From the NCBI RefSeq assembly GCF_017348835.2, contig NZ_CP072315.1: 64,000 nt of DNA, one strand, 5' to 3'. This DNA is from Escherichia coli (GTDB lineage Bacteria > Pseudomonadota > Gammaproteobacteria > Enterobacterales > Enterobacteriaceae). Positions 5,566-57,802 of this stretch are shown piece after piece (the stretch's first letter is position 1; each line of letters opens with the position of its first letter). The position numbers were made by a program, and so were the translations under genes. The notes beneath the pieces were generated by a model. It did no database searches. It worked only from the letters and a program-made list of their open reading frames with translations, and had not been told where the DNA came from.

Positions 5566-5566
5566 T

Positions 5567-6340
5567 TTAATTTTCTCCAAAAATTCGCTGTGAAATGGCA
5601 TCTGCAAACTGACTCTGACGCGGGATGCCAAACCAGCTGCACAGTTTCATAAAACGATGATCGCTCAGGCTGTCGCCCAGGCCAATTACGGGGAAGACTC
5701 CGCGTTCAGCCCGAAGTTTTTCAAGCAGCCATCTGACTGCCAGCCCTTTCTCAACCGGGGTGGGAAGCCAGGCCACGTTATTACTGTTGCGGTGGATGTA
5801 GAAGCCCTCGGTCGGAAACACCGTTTCTATCTCATCTGCAATGGCATTAAGCTCGTCAAGGCGGGTGCTGTCGCGGTGCTTCATCACCATATAAACCGCC
5901 GTTTCACCGTATTCGAAGTTCAGCCTTGCCCAGGCATTGATCCCTTTTGCGTCCATCATTTCAGTGATCAGACGCTGCATCGATGTCAGCTTTTCCTGGT
6001 AGGGAGCCAGCTGGCCAAGCATATGGGCCTTCCACTCCTCGTCGGGTTTGCCTTCAGGCGTGAGAATGACGGCCCCGTGCGTGGTGATTGCCCAGGAGTG
6101 GAAAGGGATCCGGACGCGGCTGATTTCTTCAGTTCCCCGGGCGGTAACAGGTATGAGTTCAGCCTGCTCCAGGAGCCAGTCCACCAACATGGACTGTTCT
6201 TCCGTCATAAAGCTTCGTGGATTCAGGGTGCGATCAACGGCACCGGTACGGAATGGCTCCAGGGCCAGCTCGTCCACCATTTTACGACGGGTCTGAAAGA
6301 GCGTGTCGTCAAGGTCGCTCAGAACAACGGGTTTATTCAT
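5567..6340 (-). CDS. HAD-superfamily hydrolase
   Basis: Starts MNKPVVLSDLDDTLF (HAD motif I DxDxT); ATG at 6340 overlaps the PRTase gene's stop by 8 nt; the longer track ORF 5567..6676 is an upstream extension. Confidence 0.7.
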   Translation of the reverse strand: MNKPVVLSDLDDTLFQTRRKMVDELALEPFRTGAVDRTLNPRSFMTEEQSMLVDWLLEQAELIPVTARGTEEISRVRIPFHSWAITTHGAVILTPEGKPDEEWKAHMLGQLAPYQEKLTSMQRLITEMMDAKGINAWARLNFEYGETAVYMVMKHRDSTRLDELNAIADEIETVFPTEGFYIHRNSNNVAWLPTPVEKGLAVRWLLEKLRAERGVFPVIGLGDSLSDHRFMKLCSWFGIPRQSQFADAISQRIFGEN

Positions 6341-7481: not shown

Positions 7482-7484
7482 GCC

Positions 7485-8543
7485 TTAATTCAGATGGTTA
7501 GAGAGTGATTCCGGGTAAACGATGACATCTGTGATGGATCTCACTGCAACCGGAGAAAAGGTATTTCTGGCGCTCTGGATCACCGCATCTTCAGACATCA
7601 GACCGAGCTTAAAGGCAGCAAACAACCCGGGAAGGTTCACCCCGCTGTGAAGGGTATAACCCACCCCGCCTGACGGACGCATGTTGGTTTCAAGCAGCAC
7701 CGGGTTGCCATTCACATCGTTTCGCGTCTGAACATTCACCAGCCCGTCGGCCTTCATAACCCGGGCGCAGTCACAAGCCAGTTCCCAGGCGCTTCCTTCG
7801 TTTACCAGATACTGGATAGCCCCTTCCTTACGGCGTCCCACGGCTGCGAGTATTTCGCCCTTATCCGCGAGGATATCGACGGAAAATTCCGGGCCTGGCA
7901 GGTACGGCATCAAAACAAGGGGTTTAAACGACTCAGAAGCCGATGCTGCTGCAATATACTGTTGCGGACTGACCAGACGATGTTCGGGATGATTAAAGAC
8001 GGCCATGGGCGAAGCACTGTCATCAAAGCGCCAGAATCCCATGCCATAGATACCCGTCACCGGCTTCACGCATACCGGGCTGTCCGAGAACGGCGGGGCC
8101 GCGAGGTGCGTCTTTAATTCTGCCAGCGTATTCACCCGCCAGGACGGTACGACCGGGAGCCCGTTTTGCTCCATAAACTGAGCAAAAGTAACTTTTTCGT
8201 CAGCCAGAGTTAACCAGTCGACGCCTGTTGCACCGGTAGTAAGGGTGGCTCCGGTCGATTCAATGGCTGAACGGTGTTCTTCAAACCACTGGCTGTTACG
8301 GCCAGTATGAATATGGTGGATGCCGTAGGTCTGAATGGTTTCCTGAATAAACTGAAGACGTTTTTGAGGATCTTCAGGTTCAGTCAAAGAATAATCGGCA
8401 ACGGAAAGAATTTCATGTCTTTCGTTACGGTGGGAGGCAAATACGGTAATAGCAAAATTATTTTTTTGTGCAAATGATTTTACCCCCTGAATAATATCTC
8501 GCTGGGAGGACAAACCTTCCATAAACCAAATTTTCTTGTTCAT
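7485..8543 (-). CDS. ATP-grasp family enzyme
   Basis: 352-aa ORF, first gene of the minus-strand module; ATP-grasp-like fold judged from sequence. Confidence 0.65.
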   Translation of the reverse strand: MNKKIWFMEGLSSQRDIIQGVKSFAQKNNFAITVFASHRNERHEILSVADYSLTEPEDPQKRLQFIQETIQTYGIHHIHTGRNSQWFEEHRSAIESTGATLTTGATGVDWLTLADEKVTFAQFMEQNGLPVVPSWRVNTLAELKTHLAAPPFSDSPVCVKPVTGIYGMGFWRFDDSASPMAVFNHPEHRLVSPQQYIAAASASESFKPLVLMPYLPGPEFSVDILADKGEILAAVGRRKEGAIQYLVNEGSAWELACDCARVMKADGLVNVQTRNDVNGNPVLLETNMRPSGGVGYTLHSGVNLPGLFAAFKLGLMSEDAVIQSARNTFSPVAVRSITDVIVYPESLSNHLN

Positions 8544-9447: not shown

Positions 9448-10604
9448 TGAACCTGACGCCGGGGGGCAATGCCCCCGTTCCAGCCCAGGAGTTGCGGGTC
9501 CGGATCACCTCGGGCGGCCAGGTGGATGCTTCGGCGTTTCGCCTGTATGCCGACGGGAAGGTGCAGGGTGATGCGGACATGGTGTTTTATGGTCAGCCAC
9601 GTAACGATGATGGTACCGTCAGCCTGGTCAGTGAAGGCCAGTACTCAACCTTTACTGTCGCGCTCAACCGGCTGAAACCTGATGTCCAGAAAATTGCGTT
9701 CACCGTGACCTGTGACGGTGGGCAGACGGTGTCCGGTCTTCGTAATCTTTCCATCGACGTGGAGCAAGGGGCTACCGGCCTGGTTAGCGGCAGTGTCGAA
9801 CTGAGCGGCCGTCAGGAAGCAGCCTTAATTCTGGGTGAATTTTACCGTCGTAATAATGACTGGAAATTCCGCTTCGTTGCGCAGGGGTTCAACGGTGGAC
9901 TTAAACCGCTGGCAGAGCATTTCGGCGTAAATATTGCCGACGAACCGGCTCCCGCAGCCCCGACTCCTCCGGTTGTAACCCCTCCGCCAGTTGAGACAAA
10001 AATCAGCCTGAGCAAGGTATCGCTGACAAAAGAGAAGCCTGCAATCAGCCTGACCAAACGGGATAACTTCGGTGAAATCCGGATCAACCTGAACTGGCAC
10101 CGGGGCAGCGGCAAATCAGGCTTTGCAGGCATGTTCGGCTCCAAAGGAATCGACCTGGATCTGGGGGCCTTTGTTGAGCTTCAGGACGGGTATAAATCGG
10201 TCATTCAGGCGCTCGGTAATGCATTCGGTAATTATCGCGATGAACCGTATGTTCAGCTCAAGGGCGATGACCGGACGGGTGATGTATCAGACGGCGAGTG
10301 GCTGCATATCAATGGACGTGAATGGAAGCATATCCGCGAAGTGCTGATTTACGCCTTTATTTATGAAGGTGTTCCCAGCTGGGACAAGACTGATGGTGTG
10401 GTCACCATTCATGTGCCGGATCAACCGCCCATTGAGACCCGCCTGACCGAAGGTGAAAACCGTCGCACATTGTGCGCCATTGCCAGACTCGTAAACGAAA
10501 ACGGCGCAATTAAAGTCGAGCGAATTAACCAGTACTTCAAAGGCCAGGACGAAATGGACCGGGCATTTGGCTGGGGATTTCGCTGGAGCGCCGGTTCTAA
10601 ATAA
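9447..10604 (+). CDS. terA: Tellurium resistance protein TerA
   Basis: 385-aa ORF; TAATG stop/start overlap with terZ. Confidence 0.85.
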   Translation: MNLTPGGNAPVPAQELRVRITSGGQVDASAFRLYADGKVQGDADMVFYGQPRNDDGTVSLVSEGQYSTFTVALNRLKPDVQKIAFTVTCDGGQTVSGLRNLSIDVEQGATGLVSGSVELSGRQEAALILGEFYRRNNDWKFRFVAQGFNGGLKPLAEHFGVNIADEPAPAAPTPPVVTPPPVETKISLSKVSLTKEKPAISLTKRDNFGEIRINLNWHRGSGKSGFAGMFGSKGIDLDLGAFVELQDGYKSVIQALGNAFGNYRDEPYVQLKGDDRTGDVSDGEWLHINGREWKHIREVLIYAFIYEGVPSWDKTDGVVTIHVPDQPPIETRLTEGENRRTLCAIARLVNENGAIKVERINQYFKGQDEMDRAFGWGFRWSAGSK

Positions 10605-27842: not shown

Positions 27843-29270
27843 TCAGCTGACTTCGTCGTAAAACTGCCGCAAGCGCTGGGAGGCTGCAAATTCAATTCGT
27901 GACTTCAGCAGTTTGGCGACGGCCGCAAAGACATCAACGACCACGGAGTTCCCAAACTGTCTGTAAGCCTGTGTATTGGACACAGGGATACGGAAAACAC
28001 TTTCCCCGGGTTTATCGAAGCCCATTAGCCTGCTGCATTCACGTGGCGTTAGCATGCGTGGCCGACGGTCCATGTTGTATGTGTTATGGAAATCAGTTTC
28101 TCCCAGTTCATGAGACCAGCCCCGATCAATAAGAATTTCAGATCCGTCTTTCATATAGCGGCTTGAGAGGGTTCTGGTGACACTATTAACATTGGAAGGA
28201 TCTACTAGTCCAAAACCAAAACCATTGCCTTTTGCCGCATGTTTCTTTGCATAGTTGTATAAGTACTCCCAGAGTTTAGGGGAGAGGATGTATTTACTAT
28301 CTACGCTCGGATCCAGTAAATCTGAGAGAGAAGGGCGCTTGTCCGGATAAAAGTCTTTAATGTCTCTCAGAGTAAAACCGTCTTTCAGACGTAGGTCGCG
28401 GCGAAAACCAATAAGGACGATACGTTCACGGTGCTGGGGTCGGAAATGACGGCCATCGATGACTTTAGGATCATCCGCGCCCGTGCTTTCGCTGTTTGCG
28501 ACGTCGTAGCCAAGCTCATCGAGCGTTTTCATGATGATGTTAAAGGTATTACCCTTATCGTGACTCTTCAGATTTTTTACGTTTTCCAGAACAAAAATTG
28601 CAGGTTGTTTTGCCCGGATGATCCTGGCCACATCAAAGAAGAGCGTACCCTGAGTGTCGCACTCGAAACCGTGTTTGCGACCCATAGAGTTCTTTTTACT
28701 GACACCGGCGATGCTGAATGGCTGGCATGGAAATCCCGCAAGAAGAACATCATGATCCGGGATAGAGGCATCGATAAATTTGTATGCCTCGTCATCAGTA
28801 ACCTCGGGCCGGTTGCTAAGAGTGATGTCACGGATGTCTGAATTGAAGCGGTGCTCGTTCTCATCGCAATACCAGTTCGCCCGGTAAGTACGGCTGGAAT
28901 AAGTATTCCATTCGCTCGTGAAAAGACATTTACCACCGATGGCATCAAATCCGCTTCGCAGTCCACCTATCCCTGCAAACAGATCGATAAAGCTAAAGTG
29001 CCTGTCCTCATAATCAGCAGGTCGTGAAGGTATTAAAGTCTGTAGATAGCGTCCATCTGCGATACTCAGCTCACAATGCTCAGGTATGCATGTAACCTGA
29101 CGTTTAAGGGATGCACGGGACCAATTACTGCCATTTTCATCATTTAATACCTGAGCCAGATATTTCAGGTCATAAATGGTCGAAGCTGTTAACAAAGTTT
29201 TGTGGATCAGAGATGGTGTTTTATCCACATCATTCAGGTCTGTCTCAAGATCATGAGTGTAACGTTTCAT
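27843..29270 (-). CDS. DNA (cytosine-5)-methyltransferase, Dcm-like
   Basis: C5-MTase motifs I ([10 protein letters not shown]), IV (GFPCQPFS), VI (ENV) and X (QFGNSV); likely ATG at 29270 (about 475 aa), alternative GTG at 29312. Confidence 0.85.
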
Positions 29271-29481
29271 CCAAACTCTCTCAGGAATAATATCTTTGAG
29301 ATAGATTAACACGCTTAATTTGGATTATTTTTTGGTTCAGGTTCTAAATTTATTGTGATTATTCTGCCTTTAAGTTGCAAAAAGATTGGTTTTAAGCCCG
29401 CCCATGAAATAATGACTTGTTAAAATACTGCCTGTAAATAGGCTTGTGGATACATGTCTGTACTCAACAAATCAAGGTGAA

Positions 29482-30000
29482 ATGATGTTTTTTTTAACAA
29501 AGTTACTTTTGCCCATCATGATTGTTGTATTCCCAGTGGCGTCCTGGGGGAACTCAACAACTTTTGAGGCAAAGGTGGTTAAGATTGTTGACGGTGACAC
29601 CATAACTGCGTTGGATGCTCAAAACACAACCATCAAAATACGGATGTATGGTATAGACGCTCCTGAATCTAAACAGGCTTTTGGCCAAAAAGCAAAACAG
29701 GCCTTAACCACAGCTATAGCAACTAAAATCGTTACCGTGATAGACCATGGTACGGATATCTATGGCCGTATGTTAGGTACCATCTGGTTAGATGGATATG
29801 ATATCAATGCCTCTATGGTGGACAGTGGATATGCGTGGGTTTATCGGTTCGAAGATAACGCCATTGTCCCTGGCTATATCAAATATGAATCCGCAGCACA
29901 AAAGGAGGCAAAAGGGTTATGGGCAGACACCAACCCTGTCCCACCATGGCAGTGGAGACAGGCAAACGAAAAGCCCAGAAAGGTGAAAGAGAAGAAATAA
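29482..30000 (+). CDS. Secreted thermonuclease (staphylococcal nuclease-like) protein
   Basis: ATG at 29482 after an AAGGTGA ribosome-binding site; N-terminal signal-like helix; SNase-like motifs (GDTIT, IRMYGIDAPE, DxYGR, GLW). Confidence 0.7.
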   Translation: MMFFLTKLLLPIMIVVFPVASWGNSTTFEAKVVKIVDGDTITALDAQNTTIKIRMYGIDAPESKQAFGQKAKQALTTAIATKIVTVIDHGTDIYGRMLGTIWLDGYDINASMVDSGYAWVYRFEDNAIVPGYIKYESAAQKEAKGLWADTNPVPPWQWRQANEKPRKVKEKK

Positions 30001-30002
30001 CC

Positions 30003-30899
30003 ATGATGAAAGAGCCTCATCCGTTACTTCAGTTGGTACTAAACGATTCCGGTCGTCTAACCATGCCTGTTTATTATAGAGATCAACAGTATTGCCCGAC
30101 TTGCCTTACAAAGGTGTTGAAGAGTGAGGATGGAAGTTTGGCGCACCTCGGGGAAATAAATCAAAATACATGTAGACCTTCTATTTCAGTAGTTGTGACA
30201 AAAGCAATTATTGAAATGTTATGTGACGGGGAAAAAATATATGTAAATCCAATACGACACCGAGGCCGGGTGCTGGCACCCTCAGTAATTTTTTCTCCCG
30301 ACACTCACACTTTCAAACCGTTTATAAATACAGACTATCAGCCTGTGGGAGCAAACTGGAAAAGTGAAAAGGGATATAAACTCGGTCTGTTTTATCTCAA
30401 AGATCGAGCCAACTCTATCAATAAAGAGGAATTTGATTTCATTGCCGTTATAGACCCTGAGGCAATGCAGAAAGAATTTATTTCGGCCTGGTCTGAGGTT
30501 GATGAAAAAAATCCATTGGAAACGCTGAAGCAGATCTTACGATCTAAAAACAACTCTTCTTTATGGGTAAAATGGCCTGGCAAAATTGAGCATGCGCAAA
30601 AAGGAAATTACAACGAAAATTACTGGTTCGATTATCAATCTGATAATCAGGAAGTGAACTGTACGGTCTCTGTTGTAGGTATCGAAGGTAACAGTTCCGG
30701 TGAGACAATTTATAGATTGCAAACTTTGCTAAAGCGTAAGCTCAATGAATATCAACTGGTTCGGTCTTTAGGGACTATTATGCTTCTTGATAATACCGGG
30801 AATATGATTCCATCAAACCATCCTTATTTTGAAGTCATCTCAAAAGCATGTATAAATGGAGTGCGTGACTTTGTTCGTCAAAACCCGTGGGTAGTCTGA
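30003..30899 (+). CDS. Hypothetical protein
   Basis: ATG 3 nt after the nuclease stop gives 298 aa; the track ORF from 29919 is an upstream extension overlapping the nuclease. Confidence 0.5.
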   Translation: MMKEPHPLLQLVLNDSGRLTMPVYYRDQQYCPTCLTKVLKSEDGSLAHLGEINQNTCRPSISVVVTKAIIEMLCDGEKIYVNPIRHRGRVLAPSVIFSPDTHTFKPFINTDYQPVGANWKSEKGYKLGLFYLKDRANSINKEEFDFIAVIDPEAMQKEFISAWSEVDEKNPLETLKQILRSKNNSSLWVKWPGKIEHAQKGNYNENYWFDYQSDNQEVNCTVSVVGIEGNSSGETIYRLQTLLKRKLNEYQLVRSLGTIMLLDNTGNMIPSNHPYFEVISKACINGVRDFVRQNPWVV

Positions 30900-30946
30900 C
30901 GGTCAACTATAAAGCATAATATAATTAGTAATAACAAGGAACAGAC

Positions 30947-31354
30947 ATGAATGAAAACTCAGTAATCTTAATAAGTTTATTTTGGTTTTTTTTGGGATCG
31001 AGTGTTGTAGCTGGTTTTATGGATGCATCATTATATTGCTGGATTTTTGCAGCCATAAGCGCATTGTTTCTTCTTTCGGTGATACAAACACCAAAGGAGT
31101 TAACGGTATCTATTAGTCATATGACAAGCAAAACGCTGATCTCAAAGACAGATGATGGATACACATTTAGCATTTCACCTTACGGAGACGGGTACCGCTT
31201 ATCAGTCTCGCCTGAAAATCGTCACAATGGTACCCAAAGCTTTGACGGCTGGTTCCCACGTTTTTTTTCCGAACCACAGTATGCCAAATCATCTTTAACT
31301 AAATTTCTCGGTGAGTCCTTAGTATGGGAAGAAGATTCAAGTAATGCTCTATGA
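30947..31354 (+). CDS. Hypothetical small membrane protein
   Basis: 135-aa ORF with two N-terminal hydrophobic helices; AT-rich context. Confidence 0.45.
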   Translation: MNENSVILISLFWFFLGSSVVAGFMDASLYCWIFAAISALFLLSVIQTPKELTVSISHMTSKTLISKTDDGYTFSISPYGDGYRLSVSPENRHNGTQSFDGWFPRFFSEPQYAKSSLTKFLGESLVWEEDSSNAL

Positions 31355-31399
31355 GATTACTTATTATAAATTTTTCTATTAATCTCCATGGAGTGATAT

Positions 31400-31654
31400 A
31401 TGAATTTGGCCTATTTTTTATTTTTGTCTATAACTGTTATGCTTACGAGCTTTATTATTAAATCACTTGTCGTATTGGTAAAGTTCAAATTACTTCGTGA
31501 TGAACGTCTCGAATATACCAGCAATAAAAATATTGATGAGATGTACGATTTAATGAATGCGAAGGAAGAAATCCTCATAAGGCATCATAAGCAGATGTTG
31601 GCATTGCATCTTTCACTATTAATATTCGTTCTATTTATTGCTTACATTTACTAA
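31400..31654 (+). CDS. Hypothetical small membrane protein
   Basis: 84-aa ORF with hydrophobic N- and C-terminal helices. Confidence 0.4.
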   Translation: MNLAYFLFLSITVMLTSFIIKSLVVLVKFKLLRDERLEYTSNKNIDEMYDLMNAKEEILIRHHKQMLALHLSLLIFVLFIAYIY

Positions 31655-31691
31655 AAATAATTTTATTCAACATTTCAACAAAGGGTTTTCA

Positions 31692-31979
31692 ATGGAAAGC
31701 TTCGAAACTGAACAAATGATTCAATATGCTTTCTACATAAATATCGTAATAACGACTGGTTTGGCATGGTTTTGCTTGCGGTCAGGATTGCATTACAATT
31801 TTTTCAGAAAAGCAGAGAGTGCCAGAACAAAAGGGCTGAGTAGTACCTCTACTGAACACGGTCCAGCAATAGTGAGACTAAAGAAGCTACAAGCATTAGT
31901 AGATTTTATTAGTAACTGTGCTTTTCTAATCCTTTCAATTGGCACAGCTTATATTTTGTATGTTTGGAGCCACAGTTAA
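31692..31979 (+). CDS. Hypothetical small membrane protein
   Basis: ATG at 31692 gives 95 aa (MESFETEQ...); the track start at 31638 overlaps the previous gene. Confidence 0.4.
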   Translation: MESFETEQMIQYAFYINIVITTGLAWFCLRSGLHYNFFRKAESARTKGLSSTSTEHGPAIVRLKKLQALVDFISNCAFLILSIGTAYILYVWSHS

Positions 31980-32015
31980 CTCATACGAGGTAACTTCGGC
32001 AGGTAACAACTTCTA

Positions 32016-32246
32016 ATGCAGGACTTTAATAACTCTAAGGGATTCTACATGAAAAAAGACGATCTAATTACGCGTTGTAAATTACTTAAAGGCGAACGCG
32101 ATGAGTCTATCTTTACCATATTAATTGGGATAGTAGTAAAGCTGGGGCTGGTAGGCCTGGCATTCTATCTGTTGCTTGGTTCCACGATTGATTGGTCAAG
32201 CTGGAAAACTTATGCCGCCATGTTGATCTTGGGAGCATTTCTCTAA
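32016..32246 (+). CDS. Hypothetical small membrane protein
   Basis: 76-aa ORF (alternative start at 32049) with a hydrophobic helix. Confidence 0.4.
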   Translation: MQDFNNSKGFYMKKDDLITRCKLLKGERDESIFTILIGIVVKLGLVGLAFYLLLGSTIDWSSWKTYAAMLILGAFL

Positions 32247-32582
32247 AATCTTGAACCTTTTTTCACTCATTACAAGCCATGACCTAGTGCGTAGATCATA
32301 CGATCTTTAAACCTTATGTCATTGATTTATAAGTACATATAACAAAGATTATGTTAAATACTGTATGTATGTACAGCATCAACAGTTGCCCCCCTCATAT
32401 TGAGGTAATTGCTACATTCATACCACTATTCTTCTTATAGTATCGACATCCTGAATTATTGCACCCTACTGCTTTGTCTTTAGCTGTTCCGAATTAAAAT
32501 TCATTGCTCAATTTGGATCACATGACGATCAGCGTATTCCTTTGCTTTATCAAAGTTAAGTTTTTAAAACATAAGATATGTA

Positions 32583-33044
32583 ATGACAAATTCTCAATCT
32601 GATTTTCCTTTGAACGATCAAAATTTTCAGGCAGATTTGCTGAAAATCAAAAAGGTTTTCGCCGACCTTATAACGCAGGCATCAGATGGTAAGATACCCA
32701 TAAGGTCTTCTCATGTACACGGCTTACACCATTTCGAGGAGCTCTACATCCGGGCAAGAGCAGGCATGTGTTCGGTCCTGGGATATCCGGTCATGGTTGT
32801 TTCAACTATCTCAGTTAAAGAGCCCGGCACAGGCATTTTTAGAGCGCTTCTTGCAGAATTGAAATGTATTGCAGATGAACAAAATTACATTTTGAAAATT
32901 GAAAATGTACTGCCTCCCCTATTCCGCAAATACCTTATTCAAGAAGGTTTTGTTTTCCCAGGTGAACCTTGGATGTGTGGTTCCGGCTATTGGTTTAAGA
33001 ACCCACAAGTACTTCATGAAAATATTGAGTTATTATCTGTTTAA
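32583..33044 (+). CDS. Hypothetical protein, possibly GNAT-like
   Basis: 153-aa ORF; core resembling acetyl-CoA-binding motif A (KEPGTGIFRALLAEL) — weak inference. Confidence 0.4.
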   Translation: MTNSQSDFPLNDQNFQADLLKIKKVFADLITQASDGKIPIRSSHVHGLHHFEELYIRARAGMCSVLGYPVMVVSTISVKEPGTGIFRALLAELKCIADEQNYILKIENVLPPLFRKYLIQEGFVFPGEPWMCGSGYWFKNPQVLHENIELLSV

Positions 33045-33073
33045 GTCGATCTAACAATTTCACTGGAGCTAAC

Positions 33074-33481
33074 ATGTCCCCGGAATTGGTATCAGACATT
33101 GCAAGAGTGGCGCATGAAAAGCTACTTTCAATTTTAACGGAGTGCGGCATAGAGAAGACGGCAGGCACTTGCCTTTTTGCAAGCTATCTTGTGTGTTATT
33201 TAGCAAAAACTAAAGGTCTAGATGCTGTTGTCCGTGGGGGTAACGGTGCAGATGATGGCGGTATATTTATAGAGTGTGGTGGCTTTGGCCATTATTGGTG
33301 TGAGTTGAATTTCGAAGAAGTGCAATATTATATTGACATCACTTCCGAACAGTTTGGGTTTCATCCATACATAGTGAAACTCGCCAACGATATAACAGGA
33401 TGGCCTCGATATATTCCTGGTGATCAGGAAACGGTCGATAGTCATTTAGAACAATTATTACGCGACGGCTATACAGAATAG
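33074..33481 (+). CDS. Hypothetical protein with Cys-His-Asp triad-like spacing (possible papain/transglutaminase-like fold)
   Basis: 135-aa ORF with ordered conserved-looking C (GTCLF), H (GHYWC) and D (YYIDIT); 29 nt after the previous gene. Confidence 0.4.
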   Translation: MSPELVSDIARVAHEKLLSILTECGIEKTAGTCLFASYLVCYLAKTKGLDAVVRGGNGADDGGIFIECGGFGHYWCELNFEEVQYYIDITSEQFGFHPYIVKLANDITGWPRYIPGDQETVDSHLEQLLRDGYTE

Positions 33482-33531
33482 GCTGCGTATACCCTATCGC
33501 AGCCTTTCAGGCTCTTAACCCTTGTGACCTG

Positions 33532-34059
33532 TTAACGGAACCACTCAGGATGACGCTGCCGATCAACTTTGATAACCTGCGAATTAAATTCAACGACATC
33601 CGCTGGAGTAAGCATTAATTCATCAGGATTTACAATAAATGGTCTTAAAACCACTTCGCCACCGTCTTCTTTTGCACCGTAGATATTAATAAGAAAGTGC
33701 AGTCGTTGATTTCCTTCAGCATTGCGTTGCCATTCTCTAAAAGTCAAAGTTTGTTTAATATAGTTTGTTAAAAGAAATGCGAATTCAGATTCTTCCGTTT
33801 GTGAGATACCGATTTTGTTAGACATTTTTTTTAGTATCTTTCCGAGCATGGACACACAGGCATCTAGACTTAACGATGTTGAAATTTTGGTCGTATTAAA
33901 ATCCTCCTGCGAAAGTGAAATCATCCATGTATTATCTTTATGATAGTCGGTAATATAAATAAAATGAGATGTAAAAGGCGTTGAGTGATTGAACTCTCCT
34001 AAGTTCCATCCATACTGACTCACTGTATTTGAGCTAAGTTCTTTGTCGGTAATGTTCAT
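33532..34059 (-). CDS. Hypothetical protein
   Basis: 175-aa ORF. Confidence 0.4.
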   Translation of the reverse strand: MNITDKELSSNTVSQYGWNLGEFNHSTPFTSHFIYITDYHKDNTWMISLSQEDFNTTKISTSLSLDACVSMLGKILKKMSNKIGISQTEESEFAFLLTNYIKQTLTFREWQRNAEGNQRLHFLINIYGAKEDGGEVVLRPFIVNPDELMLTPADVVEFNSQVIKVDRQRHPEWFR

Positions 34060-34225
34060 AATTCATACCTTTCGATAAAGTCTGTAATGATAATTAGCTA
34101 TCTCAAAGGACCAGAACAACTCTTGAAATAACCACACTCGAAGAATTTATCATATTGAACACCCCTACCTAATAACCTTGCCGACTTAATAAATCACAAT
34201 AGCCCTCCCCTGACATTTTAAAATG

Positions 34226-34612
34226 CTACTTGAATTTTTGATAGCTTATGGTTGTTTTATGTTCTTTGTGATACGCATATGTCATCTTCTCTTTCCAGTA
34301 CCAATCTTGTAGATCCTGCAAGTCTAGCCCATTTTTCTCACGTATGCTTTCGTGTAATTCGCTAAGCGCGAGTTTATCATTAGGTTTATAAATGGCTAAT
34401 TTTTCTTCAAATAAATCCAGCCAACGTTTCCCCATCTTACGACGCAAAACAAACACCATCGTGATAAATGTAATGAAATGCACAGCAATTAGTTCCAACT
34501 TATGCGATTGCTGACCAGATAAAATTACTATTGTAACAACAGGGATGGCCGTATATAAAGCAATCAAAGCGACCATAAGTTGGTATGGTTTTTCCCGTAT
34601 TACCATGTTCAT
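34226..34612 (-). CDS. Hypothetical membrane protein
   Basis: 128-aa ORF with two hydrophobic helices; ends 41 bp from the Tn1721 inverted repeat. Confidence 0.45.
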   Translation of the reverse strand: MNMVIREKPYQLMVALIALYTAIPVVTIVILSGQQSHKLELIAVHFITFITMVFVLRRKMGKRWLDLFEEKLAIYKPNDKLALSELHESIREKNGLDLQDLQDWYWKEKMTYAYHKEHKTTISYQKFK

Positions 34613-34652
34613 GGGTAAACCAGAGGACGCTACTGCTTGCCAAAATCTTAAA

Positions 34653-34690
34653 GGGGAGCCCGCAGAATTCGGAAAAAATCGTACGCTAAG
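34653..34690 (+). repeat. Tn1721-type 38-bp terminal inverted repeat (IRR-like)
   Basis: GGGGAGCCCGCAGAATTCGGAAAAAATCGTACGCTAAG. Confidence 0.85.
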
Positions 34691-35360
34691 GTTTTCCGGG
34701 CATCCGTAAGGGCCGAAACTTCCCGTCTTCCAGTCTGCGGCTCTGCCGCCAGACGTAATCGCCGGTTAGGTTGATGTGCTCCCAGCCCAGCGGCGACAGG
34801 AATTGCAGCAGCTCGCCGTCCACCGGCTTGCCGGCCTCGACCAACCCCTGGGTGGCGCGTTCCAGGTACACCGTGTTCCACAGCACGATAGCCGCCGTCA
34901 CCAGGTTGAGGCCGCTGGCCCGGTAGCGCTGCTGCTCGAAGCTCCGATCCCTGATTTCCCCAAGGCGGTTGAAGAACACCGCCCTGGCCAGCGAGTTGCG
35001 CGCCTCACCTTTGTTCAGGCCGGCATGCACGCGGCGGCGCAGTTCAACACTTTGCAGCCAGTCCAGGATGAACAGCGTGCGCTCGATCCGGCCCAGCTCG
35101 CGCAGGGCCACGGCCAGTCCGTTCTGGCGCGGGTAGCTGCCGAGCTTGCGCAGCATCAGCGAGGCGGTGACGGTGCCCTGCTTGATCGAGCTGGCCAGGC
35201 GCAGGATGTCGTCCCAGTGGGCACGCACGTGCTTGATGTTCAGGGTGCCGCCGATCAGCGGGCGCAACGTCGGGTAGGCTTGCACGCCCTGCGGCACGTA
35301 CAGCTTGGTTTCGCCGAGGTCGCGGATGCGCGGCGCGAAGCGGAAGCCTAGCAGGTGCAT
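34686..35360 (-). pseudogene. tnpA: 3' fragment of a Tn21-subgroup (Tn1721-type) transposase gene
   Basis: 224-aa ORF ending inside the 38-bp inverted repeat with Tn3-family transposase C-terminal character; fragment continues to the Tn3 repeat junction near 35400. Confidence 0.7.
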
Positions 35361-37680: not shown

Positions 37681-37707
37681 CGGGGAGAATAATAGTCTAT
37701 CCCGGCA

Positions 37708-38085
37708 TTGCCAGTCGGGGATATTAAAAAGAGTATAGGTTTTTATTGCGATAAACTAGGTTTCACTTTGGTTCACCATGAAGATGGATTCGCAGTTCTA
37801 ATGTGTAATGAGGTTCGGATTCATCTATGGGAGGCAAGTGATGAAGGCTGGCGCTCTCGTAGTAATGATTCACCGGTTTGTACAGGTGCGGAGTCGTTTA
37901 TTGCTGGTACTGCTAGTTGCCGCATTGAAGTAGAGGGAATTGATGAATTATATCAACATATTAAGCCTTTGGGCATTTTGCACCCCAATACATCATTAAA
38001 AGATCAGTGGTGGGATGAACGAGACTTTGCAGTAATTGATCCCGACAACAATTTGATTAGCTTTTTTCAACAAATAAAAAGCTAA
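37708..38085 (+). CDS. bleO: Bleomycin-binding protein, Gram-positive (pUB110-type) BleO-like
   Basis: 125 aa from TTG at 37708; sequence PVGDIKKSIGFYCDKLGFTLVHHEDGFAVLMCNEVRIHLWEASDEGW… matches the pUB110 bleomycin-resistance protein as I recall it; an in-frame stop upstream suggests the native N-terminus is missing. Confidence 0.7.
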   Translation: MPVGDIKKSIGFYCDKLGFTLVHHEDGFAVLMCNEVRIHLWEASDEGWRSRSNDSPVCTGAESFIAGTASCRIEVEGIDELYQHIKPLGILHPNTSLKDQWWDERDFAVIDPDNNLISFFQQIKS

Positions 38086-38404
38086 AATCTATTATTAATC
38101 TGTTCAGCAATCGGGCGCGATTGCTGAATAAAAGATACGAGAGACCTCTCTTGTATCTTTTTTATTTTGAGTGGTTTTGTCCGTTACACTAGAAAACCGA
38201 AAGACAATAAAAATTTTATTCTTGCTGAGTCTGGCTTTCGGTAAGCTAGACAAAACGGACAAAATAAAAATCTAAATATGCTTGAACAACTTGTAACTTA
38301 AATTCATAACTGTATTTTGCCATAAAAAATGACCTCCCATAAGTTAGATTTTTGGTCTAACTTATGGGGGTCAGTTCATTCTACACTTGGGCTGCATGTT
38401 TTGA

Positions 38405-38797
38405 TTAATTATCTAATATCTCCGGATCTCCTGTAAAGGAATATAAAACTGCCTGCATGTTTTTCAAATAAAATACGGTGAATTTCCCATCATCAGCGCT
38501 ATACCAATCTCTCAAATGCGGATTTGCTTCAAGCATTGCTTCCCTTGCTTCCACGGTATCATCAATTACGGCTTCGCCGGTGAGCCGAATCCATTTTCCT
38601 TTTGCCATACCTGAGACTTCCACCTTTGAATTTGCCAATAACTGCTGATAAACTTTTTTCTGATTGGTTGTACCAAGATAGACCTTGCCATTCCTCTCCA
38701 TGGCTGCATTAAACGGTCTGACCCTTGGCTGGTCTCCTTCAACGGTTGCAAAATAAAAAGTTTTTGCTTCATTTAAAAAATCAACAACTTGACTCAT
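38405..38797 (-). CDS. Pyridoxamine 5'-phosphate oxidase-like (flavin-binding split-barrel) protein
   Basis: 130-aa ORF in an AT-rich, Gram-positive-like segment; fold assignment tentative. Confidence 0.5.
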   Translation of the reverse strand: MSQVVDFLNEAKTFYFATVEGDQPRVRPFNAAMERNGKVYLGTTNQKKVYQQLLANSKVEVSGMAKGKWIRLTGEAVIDDTVEAREAMLEANPHLRDWYSADDGKFTVFYLKNMQAVLYSFTGDPEILDN

Positions 38798-39079
38798 CCT
38801 TTTTTACCTCCATAAATAAATTTTTCTTTACTTTTCTTTGACCTAAATTCCACGTGCATTTTTTATTAGCTTAAAAGAACACTATTTCACGAAGAATTTA
38901 AACTGATACTCCCACATTGTAACATTATTTACCACCACCTTTCAATCTTTTTCAATAAATTATTGATTGCAACTTTTGAGTAAAGATACTTATTAAACCC
39001 TGCAAGTTATCCACAGAGCAACACTCGATTTTCAAGATGATATCTTTATTACACCAGACATTTTTCATACACTTCCTTG

Positions 39080-39899
39080 GGCACTGTTGCAAAGTTAGCG
39101 ATGAGGCAGCCTTTTGTCTTATTCAAAGGCCTTACATTTCAAAAACTCTGCTTACCAGGCGCATTTCGCCCAGGGGATCACCATAATAAAATGCTGAGGC
39201 CTGGCCTTTGCGTAGTGCACGCATCACCTCAATACCTTTGATGGTGGCGTAAGCCGTCTTCATGGATTTAAATCCCAGCGTGGCGTTGATTATCCGTTTC
39301 AGTTTGCCATGATCGCATTCAATCACGTTGTTCCGGTACTTAATCTGTCGGTGTTCAACGTCAGACGGGCACCGGCCTTCGCGTTTGAGCAGAGCAAGCG
39401 CGCGACCATAGGCGGGCGCTTTATCCGTGTTGATGAATCGTGGGATCTGCCACTTCTTCACGTTGTTGAGGATTTTACCCAGAAACCGGTATGCAGCTTT
39501 GCTGTTACGACGGGAGGAGAGATAAAAATCGACAGTGCGGCCCCGGCTGTCGACGGCCCGGTACAGATACGCCCAGCGGCCATTGACCTTCACGTAGGTT
39601 TCATCCATGTGCCACGGGCAAAGATCGGAAGGGTTACGCCAGTACCAGCGCAGCCGTTTTTCCATTTCAGGCGCATAACGCTGAACCCAGCGGTAAATCG
39701 TGGAGTGATCGACATTCACTCCGCGTTCAGCCAGCATCTCCTGCAGCTCACGGTAACTGATGCCGTATTTGCAGTACCAGCGTACGGCCCACAGAATGAT
39801 GTCACGCTGAAAATGCCGGCCTTTGAATGGGTTCATGTGCAGCTCCATCAGCAAAAGGGGATGATAAGTTTATCACCACCGACTATTTGCAACAGTGCC
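39080..39899 (-). mobile_element. IS26 copy 2 (820 bp)
   Basis: Both 14-bp ends present; abuts a 5'-truncated IS26 in the opposite orientation at 39900. Confidence 0.9.
39132..39836 (-). CDS. tnp26: IS26 transposase Tnp26 (Asn at position 184)
   Basis: 234 aa from [12 protein letters not shown]; contains KRIINATLG. Confidence 0.9.
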   Translation of the reverse strand: MNPFKGRHFQRDIILWAVRWYCKYGISYRELQEMLAERGVNVDHSTIYRWVQRYAPEMEKRLRWYWRNPSDLCPWHMDETYVKVNGRWAYLYRAVDSRGRTVDFYLSSRRNSKAAYRFLGKILNNVKKWQIPRFINTDKAPAYGRALALLKREGRCPSDVEHRQIKYRNNVIECDHGKLKRIINATLGFKSMKTAYATIKGIEVMRALRKGQASAFYYGDPLGEMRLVSRVFEM

Positions 39900-45295: not shown

Positions 45296-45368
45296 ACCCA
45301 CGGCGTAACGCGCTTGCTGCTTGGATGCCCGAGGCATAGACTGTACAAAAAAACAGTCATAACAAGCC

Positions 45369-53213: not shown

Positions 53214-54850
53214 GAGTGACGGGCACTGGCTGGCAATGTCTAGCAACGGCAGGCATTTCGGCTGAGGGTAAAAGAACTTTCCGCTAAGCGATAGACTGTA
53301 TGTAAACACAGTATTGCAAGGACGCGGAACATGCCTCATGTGGCGGCCAGGACGGCCAGCCGGGATCGGGATACTGGTCGTTACCAGAGCCACCGACCCG
53401 AGCAAACCCTTCTCTATCAGATCGTTGACGAGTATTACCCGGCATTCGCTGCGCTTATGGCAGAGCAGGGAAAGGAATTGCCGGGCTATGTGCAACGGGA
53501 ATTTGAAGAATTTCTCCAATGCGGGCGGCTGGAGCATGGCTTTCTACGGGTTCGCTGCGAGTCTTGCCACGCCGAGCACCTGGTCGCTTTCAGCTGTAAG
53601 CGTCGCGGTTTCTGCCCGAGCTGTGGGGCGCGGCGGATGGCCGAAAGTGCCGCCTTGCTGGTTGATGAAGTACTGCCTGAACAACCCATGCGTCAGTGGG
53701 TGTTGAGCTTCCCGTTTCAGCTGCGTTTCCTGTTTGCCAGCCGGCCCGAGATCATGGGGTGGGTGCTGGGCATCGTTTACCGCGTCATTGCCACGCACCT
53801 GGTCAAGAAAGCGGGCCATACCCACCAAGTGGCCAAGACGGGCGCGGTCACCCTGATCCAGCGTTTTGGATCGGCGCTCAATCTGAATGTTCACTTCCAC
53901 ATGCTGTTTCTCGACGGTGTGTATGTCGAGCAATCCCACGGCTCAGCGCGTTTCCGCTGGGTCAAGGCGCCGACCAGCCCAGAGCTCACCCAGCTGACGC
54001 ACACCATCGCCCACCGGGTGGGTCGCTATCTGGAACGGCAAGGCCTGCTGGAACGGGATGTCGAAAACAGCTATCTGGCCTCGGATGCGGTGGATGACGA
54101 CCCGATGACACCCCTGCTGGGGCACTCGATCACTTACCGTATCGCTGTCGGTTCACAGGCGGGGCGAAAGGTGTTCACTTTGCAAACTCTGCCGACCAGT
54201 GGTGATCCGTTCGGTGACGGGATTGGCAAGGTAGCCGGGTCCAGCCTGCACGCCGGCGTGGCGGCCAGGGCCGATGAACGCAAGAAGCTCGAACGGCTGT
54301 GCCGGTACATCAGCCGCCCGGCGGTATCCGAGAAGCGGCTGTCGTTAACACGAGGCGGCAACGTGCGCTACCAGCTCAAGACGCCGTACCGGGACGGCAC
54401 CACGCACGTCATTTTCGAACCATTGGATTTCATTGCAAGGCTGGCCGCCCTGGTACCGAAGCCCAGAGTCAACCTAACCCGCTTCCACGGGGTGTTCGCA
54501 CCCAACAGTCGGCACCGGGCGTTGGTCACGCCGGCAAAACGGGGCAGGGGCAACAAGGTCAGGGTGGCTGATGAACCGGCAACACCAGCACAACGGCGAG
54601 CGTCGATGACATGGGCGCAACGGCTCAAGCGTGTTTTCAATATCGACATCGAGACCTGCAGCGGCTGCGGCGGCGCCATGAAAGTCATCGCCTGCATTGA
54701 AGACCCTATAGTGATCAAGCAGATCCTTGATCACCTGAAGCACAAAGCCGAAACCAGCGGGACCAGGGCGTTACCCGAAAGCCGGGCGCCACCGGCTGAG
54801 CTGCTCCTGGGTCTGTTTGACTGACGAGCCTGAAGGCCAACGATACCAAT
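53214..54850 (+). mobile_element. ISCR2 (IS91-like rolling-circle element); 3' boundary approximate
   Basis: Contains the ISCR2-type transposase gene; its first 305 bp are duplicated at 57498-57802. Confidence 0.75.
53331..54824 (+). CDS. ISCR2 transposase (IS91 family)
   Basis: 497-aa ORF MPHVAARTASRDRDTGRYQSHRPEQTLLYQ…. Confidence 0.85.
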   Translation: MPHVAARTASRDRDTGRYQSHRPEQTLLYQIVDEYYPAFAALMAEQGKELPGYVQREFEEFLQCGRLEHGFLRVRCESCHAEHLVAFSCKRRGFCPSCGARRMAESAALLVDEVLPEQPMRQWVLSFPFQLRFLFASRPEIMGWVLGIVYRVIATHLVKKAGHTHQVAKTGAVTLIQRFGSALNLNVHFHMLFLDGVYVEQSHGSARFRWVKAPTSPELTQLTHTIAHRVGRYLERQGLLERDVENSYLASDAVDDDPMTPLLGHSITYRIAVGSQAGRKVFTLQTLPTSGDPFGDGIGKVAGSSLHAGVAARADERKKLERLCRYISRPAVSEKRLSLTRGGNVRYQLKTPYRDGTTHVIFEPLDFIARLAALVPKPRVNLTRFHGVFAPNSRHRALVTPAKRGRGNKVRVADEPATPAQRRASMTWAQRLKRVFNIDIETCSGCGGAMKVIACIEDPIVIKQILDHLKHKAETSGTRALPESRAPPAELLLGLFD

Positions 54851-57503: not shown

Positions 57504-57802
57504 CGGGCACTGGCTGGCAATGTCTAGCAACGGCAGGCATTTCGGCTGAGGGTAAAAGAACTTTCCGCTAAGCGATAGACTGTATGTAAACACAGTATTG
57601 CAAGGACGCGGAACATGCCTCATGTGGCGGCCAGGACGGCCAGCCGGGATCGGGATACTGGTCGTTACCAGAGCCACCGACCCGAGCAAACCCTTCTCTA
57701 TCAGATCGTTGACGAGTATTACCCGGCATTCGCTGCGCTTATGGCAGAGCAGGGAAAGGAATTGCCGGGCTATGTGCAACGGGAATTTGAAGAATTTCTC
57801 CA
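57498..57802 (+). mobile_element. ISCR2 5' fragment (305-bp direct repeat of 53214-53518)
   Basis: Identical by eye to the start of the complete ISCR2, including the first 63 codons of its transposase. Confidence 0.85.

Follow-up and report, generated by a model that had tools for sequence, protein, structure and literature searches.

The window, i.e. the whole 64,000-nucleotide stretch of Escherichia coli DNA analysed here, contains at positions 30947-34612 an AT-rich segment of small genes that lies between a thermonuclease gene with its neighbour p298 and the end of a Tn1721-type transposon (Table 1). Every open reading frame (ORF) listed in an earlier, sequence-only reading is present where it had been placed. 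The GC profile gives 37.4% for the segment, compared to 49.4% on average for the backbone at 1-29312 and a mean of 49.7% (s.d. 2.5, minimum 45.3) for 3666-bp windows of that backbone, bearing out the marked AT-richness noted by eye. The lowest-GC stretch of 3666 bp in the whole window starts at 30901, and the low-GC zone proper runs from about 29300 to 34652, taking in the thermonuclease and the 298-aa gene.

Table 1 Features of the AT-rich stretch and its borders, in window positions.
Feature	Position	Strand	Description
SNase	29485..30000	+	thermonuclease; Pfam SNase, E=4.6e-24; left context gene, start of low-GC zone
p298	30003..30899	+	298-aa protein; directly adjoins SNase gene; context
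p135a	30947..31354	+	chimeric 135-aa ORF; fusion at deletion junction 31114/31115
p77	31121-31354	+	conserved 77-aa soluble protein; part of the chimera from Met59
p84	31400..31654	+	predicted two-helix membrane protein; hydrophobic segments 1-29 and 63-84
p95	31692..31979	+	small membrane protein; clear C-terminal hydrophobic segment 66-91, weaker N-terminal one by eye
p76	32016..32246	+	small membrane protein; one long hydrophobic segment 29-58
Conserved non-coding element	32320..32358		right end of exchangeable block
Predicted LexA (SOS) box	32359..32378		TACTGTATGTATGTACAGCA; perfect CTGT-N8-ACAG, 3 mismatches to 20-mer consensus
p153	32583..33044	+	GNAT-like (acyl-CoA N-acyltransferase) fold; fold-level likeness
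p135b	33074..33481	+	small stand-alone enzyme, transglutaminase-like/papain-like; predicted Cys33-His73-Asp88 triad
Hairpin	33480..33505		8-bp stem AGGCTGCG/CGCAGCCT, 10-nt loop; between convergent p135b and p175; read from sequence
p175	33532..34059	-	soluble protein; family common to IncHI2 and IncA/C plasmids
p128	34226..34612	-	two-helix membrane protein; hydrophobic segments 10-34 and 37-57, C-terminal domain of ~70 aa
Terminal inverted repeat	34653..34690		38 bp, Tn1721/TnAs1-type transposon; GGGGAGCCCGCAGAATTCGGAAAAAATCGTACGCTAAG

Both context genes have counterparts in two divergent loci of IncHI-type plasmids, L004 and L005. The thermonuclease, which carries an N-terminal signal-like hydrophobic segment (1-22), is 46% and 74% identical to its counterparts there, respectively. 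Orthologues of p298 occupy the same position with 23% identity in L004 and 52% in L005 (pN 0.32 against saturated pS), and searches of Pfam, NCBIfam, PADLOC and PHROG returned no family match for this protein.

Four consecutive small membrane proteins had been proposed at the left end of the segment. In a hydrophobicity scan the helices of p84, p95 and p76 stand, whereas the "135-aa membrane protein" is, as the comparison of lineages indicates, a chimera generated by a 530-bp deletion. Its codons 1-56 (30947-31114), with two hydrophobic helices, derive from another gene, for a 104-aa membrane protein, which lineages L003 and L010 still have in full; both carry ~530 bp more at the junction, including an 85-aa membrane gene, which the window lineage lacks. 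The remainder corresponds to p77. Orthologues from other lineages have 77 and 76 residues and begin at Met59 (31121), with 62% identity in L005 and a pN of 0.26 against saturated pS. The 84-aa and 95-aa ORFs are both missing from the RefSeq annotation. The p84 ORF has a GGAG 8 nt upstream of its ATG and is intact in 1,097 plasmids; it is represented by near-identical copies only, with four synonymous and five non-synonymous changes relative to L003, and its coding status is plausible. L005 has, at the corresponding position, a 99-aa orthologue of p95 with 34% identity (E=2e-14). RefSeq starts p76 at 32049, where the ribosome-binding site is better, and this start, giving 65 aa, is more likely. 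Between p76 and its counterpart in the ST1 lineage there are 18 nucleotide differences, distributed 5/6/7 over the codon positions; 12 codons differ non-synonymously and 5 synonymously, and the even spread and the non-synonymous excess thus reveal no purifying signal.

The suggestion that p153 is GNAT-like is supported at the level of the fold. Its model, of moderate confidence, displays the GNAT core of beta2-beta3-beta4, alpha3, beta5, alpha4 and beta6, and p153 is likely an acetyltransferase. Relative to the GNAT superfamily, including minimal members such as the anti-CRISPR AcrVA5 and the tRNA-acetylating toxins AtaT and TacT, strand beta-1 is missing. At the position of motif A (Q/R-x-x-G-x-G/A, in the beta4-alpha3 loop) p153 has K79-E-P-G82-T-G84, of which only the second glycine, G84, is invariant among six homologues, the Klebsiella homologue reading T-N-Q-G. 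No acetyltransferase model, Pfam Acetyltransf included, matches at E<=1 in Pfam or NCBIfam, and neither the single sequence nor a profile finds a PDB sequence. The family has an invariant C-G-S-G-Y-W motif, for which we know of no GNAT counterpart. Aminoglycoside and other drug acetyltransferases occur among the p153 matches. Assignment to a TacT/AtaT-type module was rejected because a neighbouring RHH/DUF1778 antitoxin is absent.

The Cys-His-Asp spacing previously ascribed to p135b, of the papain or transglutaminase kind, agrees with both the AF2 model (pLDDT 90) and the family alignment. Cys33 is the first residue of helix 33-46 and His73 that of strand 73-80, with Asp88 at the end of strand 83-88, an order that fits the superfamily, with the cysteine at the N-terminus of an alpha-helix followed by histidine and aspartate on adjacent beta-strands. 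The family comprises 267 clusters at E<=1e-3; among 52 diverse relatives H73 and D88 never vary, and at least 90% have C33. The superfamily compared is the Pfam clan Peptidase_CA, i.e. Transglut_core (PF01841), LapG-type BTLCP proteases, arylamine N-acetyltransferases, protein glutaminase, SseI-type deamidases and the structural-genomics protein 2HLY/PF09641. The model is structurally similar to solved members, while the family profile finds no PDB sequence and p135b itself matches no Pfam model at E<=1, neither Transglut_core nor another of the clan; one of the 52 relatives matches Transglut_core (E=0.0018). Hence p135b is, as modelled, a member of the fold superfamily and not of the Pfam Transglut_core family. 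It differs from other members in being a bare 135-aa core, without accessory domains or signal peptide, and in the family's own invariant motifs R-G-G-(D/N)-G, D-G-G and D-Q-F-G. From the modelled triad we infer a thiol-dependent, catalytically active enzyme. The hairpin that follows the gene is probably a bidirectional terminator.

On the opposite strand, p175 has homologues graded from 81% down to 38% identity; 31 alignment columns, His, Asp, Arg and Tyr residues among them, do not vary, and about 1,200 IncA/C-type records hold a copy of ~39% identity in an operon adjoining repA. No family or PDB sequence reached threshold. Identification with Tad5, a type I Thoeris inhibitor (PF25190), was rejected: the window protein gives no match, and three close homologues, aligned over profile positions 24-92 of 123, reach 15-20 bits against a gathering score of 27 bits. 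Its neighbour p128 is confined to IncHI2 plasmids (950 records, 96-100% identity), and the transposon end, 40 nt upstream of its ATG, separates it from its native upstream DNA. The claim that the segment abuts a Tn1721-type end was correct, as witnessed by the 38-bp inverted repeat. A TnAs1-family transposase is annotated at this site in matching plasmids, and in lineage L002 the backbone runs on past the insertion point, homology ending at 34652. The repeat is where the backbone ends on the right and the resistance region begins.

Between p76 and p153 lies a non-coding gap of 336 bp that harbours the predicted LexA box, a strong one preceding the p153 start codon by 205 nt. The LexA operator consensus is the 20-bp sequence TACTGTATATATATACAGTA. 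Four LexA-type sites are observed in the window against 0.66 expected, one of the others being the intI1 box, and the site described here is the only one within 29000-34700. An independent, comparable box is located in a Klebsiella IncHI1B plasmid (L013), 55 nt upstream of an operon whose p153 homologue shares 40-44% identity, and umuDC with LexA boxes is found nearby in relatives; no LexA box was found upstream of the p153 homologues of L004 and L005. The box suggests that p153 and p135b, separated by 29 nt, would be SOS-inducible. Immediately upstream, the conserved element is common to the window, L004 and L005 amid diverging sequence and occurs once per locus. It may represent a promoter of the form TTGATT ... 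GATTAT, seen by eye as a weak TTGATT-19-GATTAT directly upstream of the box; the promoter scan scored no plus-strand site there, and promoter-like sites in the region are no commoner than in shuffled sequence.

Compared across plasmids, the AT-rich stretch belongs to the IncHI2 resistance-plasmid backbone, of which it forms a variable part, and is not a separate acquired island. Positions 29400-34700 are 100% identical to IncHI2A/MOBH/MPF_F plasmids, with 617-635 records covering at least 80%, and the stretch is carried by 284 of 5,426 complete E. coli genomes, on plasmids at 305 of 314 places. An orphan dcm (Dcm methylase) and the thermonuclease are the left neighbours, and umuDC/Tra1 the right neighbours in relatives. 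The divergent loci L004 and L005 are syntenic, running from SNase and p298 through small genes and a p153 homologue to umuDC. The earlier proposal of a discrete acquired island or transposon cargo is thus contradicted by more than 600 plasmids at ~100% identity and by synteny in divergent IncHI-type plasmids. Beyond chance, no flanking direct or inverted repeats of the segment were detected, nor were mobility genes inside it; its deviant composition is the sole island-like feature. A genomic island was likewise rejected on the distribution, as lineages differ block by block and never by the whole segment. The block 31115-32359 is 99% identical in L004, although the SNase, p298 and p153 homologues of that locus are only 46%, 23% and 50% identical, and some lineages have in common only 33031-34652, others only the sequence up to 32055/32248. 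By this comparison the stretch is built from blocks swapped between IncHI-type plasmids. The first would be an array of tiny genes, p77 and the small membrane proteins p84, p95 and p76, damaged here by the 530-bp deletion; the second a pair of small cytoplasmic enzymes, p153 with its GNAT-like acyltransferase fold and p135b as the transglutaminase-like Cys-His-Asp thiol enzyme; and the third the convergent p175 with p128. IS5, IS903B, IS1 and ISKox3 insertions are present within the segment in many plasmids.

Based on these observations we tentatively propose, with rather less than even confidence, that the stretch is an AT-rich, recombination-prone accessory part of the backbone in which an H-NS-silenced, LexA-controlled p153-p135b pair aids plasmid establishment or persistence. 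The stretch follows the orphan Dcm methylase and a secreted thermonuclease and, in relatives that lack the insertion, is succeeded by umuDC and transfer region 1; the present lineage has it truncated at 34652 by the Tn1721-type insertion that opens the resistance region. Chromosomal and plasmid H-NS would keep the AT-rich DNA largely silent in an established host, with LexA additionally holding off the p153-p135b pair. Cleavage of LexA, through DNA damage or single-stranded plasmid DNA entering a new recipient, would then switch the pair on. Acylation by p153, and thiol-dependent cleavage, deamidation or acyl transfer by p135b, would covalently modify host or plasmid proteins and thereby help the plasmid to establish or persist. 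Only in the window lineage and L005 are the two genes neighbours; in Klebsiella IncHI1B plasmids they lie at different places, and therefore joint action is not required. Overall, these are probably H-NS-silenced, SOS-inducible host-interaction genes, a function that we infer.

The original interpretation, acquired cargo for immunity, entry or phage exclusion or abortive infection, in which the small membrane proteins would be exclusion or killing effectors and the two enzymes sensor or effector components, appears unlikely. Arrays of small membrane proteins and small enzymes are found in exclusion and abortive-infection systems, genes for DUF3800, PLD-family and DUF2726 proteins, often seen in defence islands, occupy the equivalent position in other IncHI-type plasmids, and block 31115-32359 is exchanged between plasmids. 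Nevertheless, PADLOC, PHROG, Pfam and NCBIfam gave no match in its favour: seven of the eight ORFs had no PADLOC hit and p175 reached a chance-level 13.8 bits (E=0.0094) to a candidate model, no PHROG match was better than E=0.0028, blastn found none of the DNA among 50,697 phage records, and the RNA libraries gave no match in the stretch. Moreover, hundreds of plasmids carry the segment as fixed backbone and not as sporadic cargo, one of its membrane ORFs is the deletion chimera and p76 evolves unconstrained. The known IncHI entry-exclusion genes belong to the transfer regions and lie outside this segment.

We find it just as doubtful that the stretch is mostly neutral, partly decaying passenger DNA, i.e. 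ORF remnants without current function hitch-hiking on a successful H-NS-silenced plasmid. In part, decay may be under way, as suggested by the unconstrained p76, the lack of distant homologues of p84, the chimera and the upstream DNA lost from p128 to Tn1721. The insertion sequences, of which IS5 splits p175 throughout the ST1 lineage, point in the same direction, as does the loss of hypothetical-gene regions from an IncHI2 plasmid under experimental evolution (PMC9599605). However, the protein sequences of p77, p95, p153, p135b, p175 and p298 are maintained, with identities down to 34-62% and pN well below pS, purifying selection being evident for p77, p95, p153, p135b and p298 (pN ~0.3 against saturated pS), the catalytic residues persist throughout the p135b family, and ORFs remain intact across lineages 3-6% apart at the DNA level. 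Of the findings that the sequence-only reading had named as refuting it, neither non-conserved ORFs nor a prophage fragment was observed: most ORFs are conserved, and no phage match was obtained.

An addiction or toxin-immunity module, with p135b as a thiol toxin neutralised by p153 or another neighbour and the small membrane proteins as Hok-like killers, is less probable still. SOS-controlled toxin genes exist, p135b resembles SseI, PMT or Tse-type deamidases or proteases in fold, and the arrangement of the pair is tight; against this, the pair is not kept in the Klebsiella IncHI1B plasmids, L008 or L009, p135b has no secretion signal or toxin-delivery domain, neither a DNA-binding protein of antitoxin type nor a signal of antisense RNA was found, and the plasmid already has hipBA and hok systems elsewhere. 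Very improbable is inactivation of a xenobiotic or antibiotic by p153 as acetyl-CoA-dependent acetyltransferase together with an arylamine-N-acetyltransferase-like p135b: drug acetyltransferases among the p153 matches and a resistance plasmid as carrier favour it, but p135b is a ~135-aa core domain against the ~280 aa and three domains of arylamine acetyltransferases, no resistance-gene predictor flags either protein in hundreds of annotated plasmids, and SOS control with very low GC is unusual for resistance genes.

The proposed H-NS-silenced, LexA-controlled backbone part can be compared to two known systems. With the H-NS-silenced AT-rich DNA of IncHI plasmids (R27/R478, which have their own H-NS/Hha paralogues) it shares 37% GC in a ~50% GC plasmid and enterobacterial hosts; it differs in showing no significant enrichment of the high-affinity H-NS motif. 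IncHI2 plasmids have an hns gene of their own that ranks with those they express most highly (PMC13183382), and the syntenic region of L004 contains an hns-like gene. The leading regions of conjugative plasmids are rich in anti-defence genes and typically include orphan methylases and umuDC (Samuel and Burstein 2024, PMC11541004). Unlike the anti-defence and establishment islands of such regions, the segment contains none of the known genes ardA, klcA, psiB, ssb or acr and is located ~20-30 kb from the presumed oriT beside mobI. Like them, it adjoins a transfer region, its neighbourhood combines an orphan DNA methylase, a nuclease, umuDC and many small uncharacterised genes, and SOS-linked control would give expression upon entry into a new host.

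The segment 30947-34612 is a recombination-prone accessory zone of the plasmid backbone and not a single acquired unit, because highly divergent IncHI-type plasmids keep its synteny, it lacks boundaries of its own and its content varies block by block. The window derives from a resistance plasmid of type IncHI2 (IncHI2A, MOBH, MPF_F), a group that is a major carrier of mcr-1, mcr-9, ESBL and metal-resistance genes and in which about half of the genes are unnamed. The segment's sequence itself is already known and common: over 29400-34700 it matches hundreds of plasmids from E. coli, Salmonella and Klebsiella (e.g. pSTM6-275) at 100% identity, at least 80% of this interval is covered in 617-635 PLSDB records, and the segment is found in 284 of 5,426 complete E. 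coli genomes, nearly always plasmid-borne. The sequence-only reading had proposed an AT-rich, horizontally acquired island abutting a Tn1721 end. Its compositional part is confirmed by a GC profile, with 37.4% GC in the segment and the window-wide minimum for a 3.7-kb stretch beginning at 30901; the left backbone averages 49.4% GC (same-size windows there: mean 49.7, sd 2.5, minimum 45.3), and the low-GC zone truly begins near 29300. The transposon end is likewise present, while the notion of an acquired island fails on the synteny. The resistance region contains a second low-GC patch (37700-39250, 34-39% GC), with a 125-aa bleomycin-resistance-like ORF and one of 130 aa adjoining IS26.

In the divergent IncHI-type loci L004 and L005, the shared order is thermonuclease, ~300-aa protein, small genes, a homologue of the GNAT-like protein p153, and then umuDC. 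Between the window and L004, the block 31115-32359 shows 99% identity, against only 46%, 23% and 50% for the thermonuclease, 298-aa and p153 homologues, respectively. Two stretches, 29001-32248 and 33031-34652, recur in the Enterobacter (R478-like) lineage, which has an arsenic operon and further genes between them, a plasmid from Salmonella Worthington is shared only up to 32055 and continues with DUF2726 and other genes, and other IncHI-type plasmids carry DUF3800 and PLD-family genes downstream of the thermonuclease. No repeats, as a signature of site-specific recombination, were found at the block junctions. Insertion sequences often target the segment (L002, a related plasmid locus, 9502-11229; hits H31 and H2-H8): IS5 splits the 175-aa gene throughout the Enterobacter lineage, and within the window lineage individual plasmids carry insertions of IS903B, ISKox3, IS3, IS1 and ISVsa5. 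The L004 region syntenic to the segment also holds an 86-aa gene for a short H-NS N-terminal domain (10267-10527). The thermonuclease, of secreted type with a signal-like N-terminus, and the ~300-aa protein may form a functional couple, since their adjacency persists across plasmids as divergent as 46% and 23% identity for the two proteins.

Coordinates of genes, sites and flanking features, with the observations attached to each
Feature	Position (strand)	Observation
Left neighbours		ter operons, hipBA, HNH gene, DUF4942, DUF1173, orphan Dcm methylase, thermonuclease, 298-aa gene
Thermonuclease and ~300-aa gene	29485-30899; L004 1027-2465; L005 2088-3547	adjacent (stop 30000, start 30003)
p298	30003-30899 (+)	as p77
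p77, soluble, inside 135-aa ORF 30947-31354	31121-31354	orthologues 34-62% identity (range for p77, p95, p153, p135b, p298); non-synonymous divergence ~0.3, synonymous saturated
p84		near-identical copies only; versus L003, 4 synonymous and 5 non-synonymous changes
p95		as p77
p76		18 differences versus ST1 lineage (comparison lineage), even over codon positions; codons 12 non-synonymous, 5 synonymous
Conserved 40-bp non-coding element	32320-32358; L004 6473-6511; L005 4700-4737	CATTGATTTATAAGTRCRTATAA..GATTATGTTAAAT
Strong predicted LexA box	32359-32378	TACTGTATGTATGTACAGCA; in 336-bp gap upstream of p153; only one in segment
p153	32583-33044 (+)	as p77
p135b	33074-33481 (+)	as p77
Hairpin	33480-33505	between p135b and convergent p175
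p175	33532-34059 (-)	homologue series graded from 81% to 38%; 31 invariant columns
p128	34226-34612 (-)	found only in IncHI2
Tn1721/TnAs1-type transposon, 38-bp inverted repeat	34653-34690	backbone ends at 34652
Transfer region 1 in relatives		DsbA, lytic transglycosylase, traG, trhH, then mobI-mobH-traD

To the right of the transposon repeat follow transposase remnants, IS26 and then the resistance region. In relatives without this insertion, the backbone runs via a few more genes to umuDC and transfer region 1. Identification of a 1111-aa neighbour in these relatives as the Ig-like conjugation protein RSP was not established, with no Pfam match on record and RSP being described as 155 kDa. 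As the transposon end sits 40 nt upstream of the ATG of p128, a two-helix membrane protein, the native promoter of this gene is missing from the window lineage.

All ORFs listed in the sequence-only reading are present at their stated positions, and hydrophobic segments occur as described in the 84-, 95-, 76- and 128-aa products; the 135-aa ORF, in contrast, is a chimera. Its orthologues in L004 and L005, both soluble, have 77 and 76 aa and begin at its Met59, and the related loci L003 and L010 keep an extra ~530 bp exactly at 31114|31115 (L003 7215-7744, L010 6216-6745), which supplies the remainder of a 104-aa membrane gene plus a second membrane gene of 85 aa. The window lineage thus has a deletion by which 56 codons from the 104-aa gene are joined in frame with the 77-aa gene. 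The deletion is carried by the dominant E. coli/Salmonella IncHI2 lineage, from which the 85-aa gene is gone. RefSeq lists the chimera as an ordinary 135-aa hypothetical protein and leaves the 84-aa and 95-aa ORFs unannotated, and the annotation is corrected here in both respects. The 76-aa gene probably starts at 32049, where the ribosome-binding site is better. Coding status is solid for p77, p95, p153, p135b, p298 and p175 and plausible for p84 and p128; for p76 it is doubtful or relaxed.

The protein p135b had been read as papain- or transglutaminase-like from its Cys, His and Asp spacing. This holds for the fold and the catalytic machinery, as indicated by the triad geometry of the AlphaFold model, by conservation and by the superfamily comparators, but does not extend to membership of a known family: p135b has no Pfam match, and Transglut_core is touched weakly by one of 52 relatives. 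A word-indexed sequence search returned few relatives only; when 1.84 billion cluster representatives were searched with a profile, 267 matched at E<=1e-3 and 175 at E<=1e-10, most of them stand-alone proteins 130-165 aa long. An alignment of 52 members shows no variation at His73, Asp88, G55, G56, G72, W75, Q93 or F94, and at least 90% of these members have Cys33. In the confident model (pLDDT 90, pTM 0.85), Cys33 starts helix 33-46, His73 starts strand 73-80 and Asp88 ends strand 83-88. The superfamily comparators are 2hly, classed as papain-like with Ser replacing Cys (PMC10318531), S. pyogenes TglA, arylamine N-acyltransferases, LapG and SseI, and further factor XIII and other transglutaminases, protein glutaminase, SpvD and the Pasteurella toxin. 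Foldseek against viral structures gave weak matches only, consistent with the fold, and the family profile found none among PDB sequences. We therefore recognise a distinct, undescribed family of minimal transglutaminase-like enzymes beyond Pfam coverage but within a known superfamily. It comprises no fewer than 267 sequence clusters in mobile elements, where other members sit among small unnamed genes. p135b is a candidate thiol enzyme, and could be a protease, deamidase, transglutaminase or acyltransferase, between which sequence cannot tell.

For p153, suggested earlier to be GNAT-like, the element order in a model of moderate quality (pLDDT 73) equals the GNAT core without strand 1, whereas no match exists in Pfam, NCBIfam or PDB sequences. 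L004, L005 and ~1,000 plasmids, mostly Klebsiella IncHI1B/IncFIB, carry homologues with 40-50% identity. We put p153 forward as a putative GNAT-like partner of p135b. An obligatory two-gene system is not supported, since p153 homologues beside distant p135b relatives were not found in the loci L008 and L009 or in Klebsiella IncHI1B plasmids. A 136-aa protein following the p153 homologue in L004, suspected from its C/H/D pattern to be a divergent p135b, was rejected (hhalign probability 0.3%).

SOS control of p153-p135b is a reasonable inference from the LexA boxes, a candidate promoter element, and the good ribosome-binding site of p135b with the downstream hairpin. In one Klebsiella IncHI1B plasmid the four-gene operon with the p153 homologue carries GGCTGTATATGTATACAGTG 55 nt before its first ATG; predicted boxes upstream of p153 and of this operon are new here and provide a concrete regulatory handle on these genes. 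L004 and L005 have no LexA box at the equivalent place. The window's further perfect CTGT-N8-ACAG sites include the known intI1 box (CTGTACAAAAAAACAG at 45341). The LexA-box-like GACTGTATGTAAACACAGTA occurs twice in the resistance region (53294-53313 and 57578-57597), the former 37 nt upstream of a 497-aa ORF (53331-54824). The 40-bp element, with one occurrence per locus, lies directly left of the window LexA box and closes the exchangeable block of small genes on the right; to the right of the element, the sequence is wholly different among the window, L004 and L005. It may be a promoter; no Rfam family matched it. Rfam and RNA folding gave nothing in the 336-bp gap, and promoter and terminator scans returned sites no more frequently than in shuffles. 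The segment is probably H-NS-silenced, as suggested by its GC content of 37% and by the plasmid-borne hns, which is highly expressed in IncHI2 (PMC13183382); the high-affinity H-NS motif is not significantly enriched.

Some ~1,200 IncA/C-type records hold a p175 homologue at ~39% identity, placed second in an operon of unnamed genes adjoining repA and mobI. The family is a new link between IncHI2 and IncA/C plasmids. In L006 (IncC, 3973-7364) and L007 (IncA, 4373-7764), this operon beside repA has six genes and is followed by genes for an S49 peptidase and DsbA; none of the six IncC genes matched Pfam. Tad5 is a phage inhibitor of the Thoeris protein ThsB. Three close p175 homologues (P0175-P0177) score 15-20 bits against Pfam Tad5, below the cut-off of 27, and p175 of the window has no Tad5 match, so that the relation is a lead and not a result.

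Pfam, NCBIfam, PADLOC and PHROGs searches of all ORFs gave nothing at threshold, nor did PDB sequence searches with p153, p135b and p175 as single sequences and profiles. A literature search by protein accession found no paper, and papers on IncHI2 evolution and transcriptome do not mention these genes. Function is not among the points established here, namely segment identity, mosaic nature, the chimera, two predicted folds and the LexA boxes as sequence. Overall, we tentatively favour the following reading. The genes would be plasmid accessory genes silent by default; the SOS signal, set off by conjugative entry itself, would release the p153-p135b pair, and both proteins would act on host or plasmid proteins, aiding establishment or persistence. 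The structural description within this proposal is very probably correct; its functional part is doubtful. If the genes do aid establishment in new hosts, they become targets for limiting plasmid spread, and in any case three IncHI2 genes gain a testable identity, as a thiol-enzyme candidate, a GNAT-like protein and a family common to IncA/C.

AcrVA5 is an acetyltransferase anti-CRISPR, and p153, p135b and p175 could be entry-SOS-induced enzymes or binders that disable host immunity or stress responses in large MOBH-type plasmids (IncHI2, IncHI1B, IncA/C and Pseudomonas megaplasmids), with p153 AcrVA5-like, p135b a minimal thiol enzyme cleaving or deamidating a host defence protein and p175 a distant Tad5 relative. 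We consider this unlikely; if true, it would establish anti-defence families not described before, together with a LexA-based 'arrival switch'. Each of four rival explanations faces specific counter-evidence. The immunity, exclusion or abortive-infection cluster suggested from the small membrane proteins and AT-rich composition is similarly improbable, with no defence match in PADLOC and no phage match. Neutral, decaying passenger DNA, with which the relaxed p76 would be compatible, has an equally small probability beside six solidly coding genes; should the genes do nothing, they measure the silent AT-rich ballast that a successful plasmid can carry. A toxin-immunity module is very unlikely, and a detoxification pair highly improbable.

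Anti-defence-rich leading regions have been described for other plasmids (PMC11541004). Unlike these, the present neighbourhood has no known anti-defence gene; in its orphan methylase, nuclease, umuDC and transfer region, however, it resembles them.
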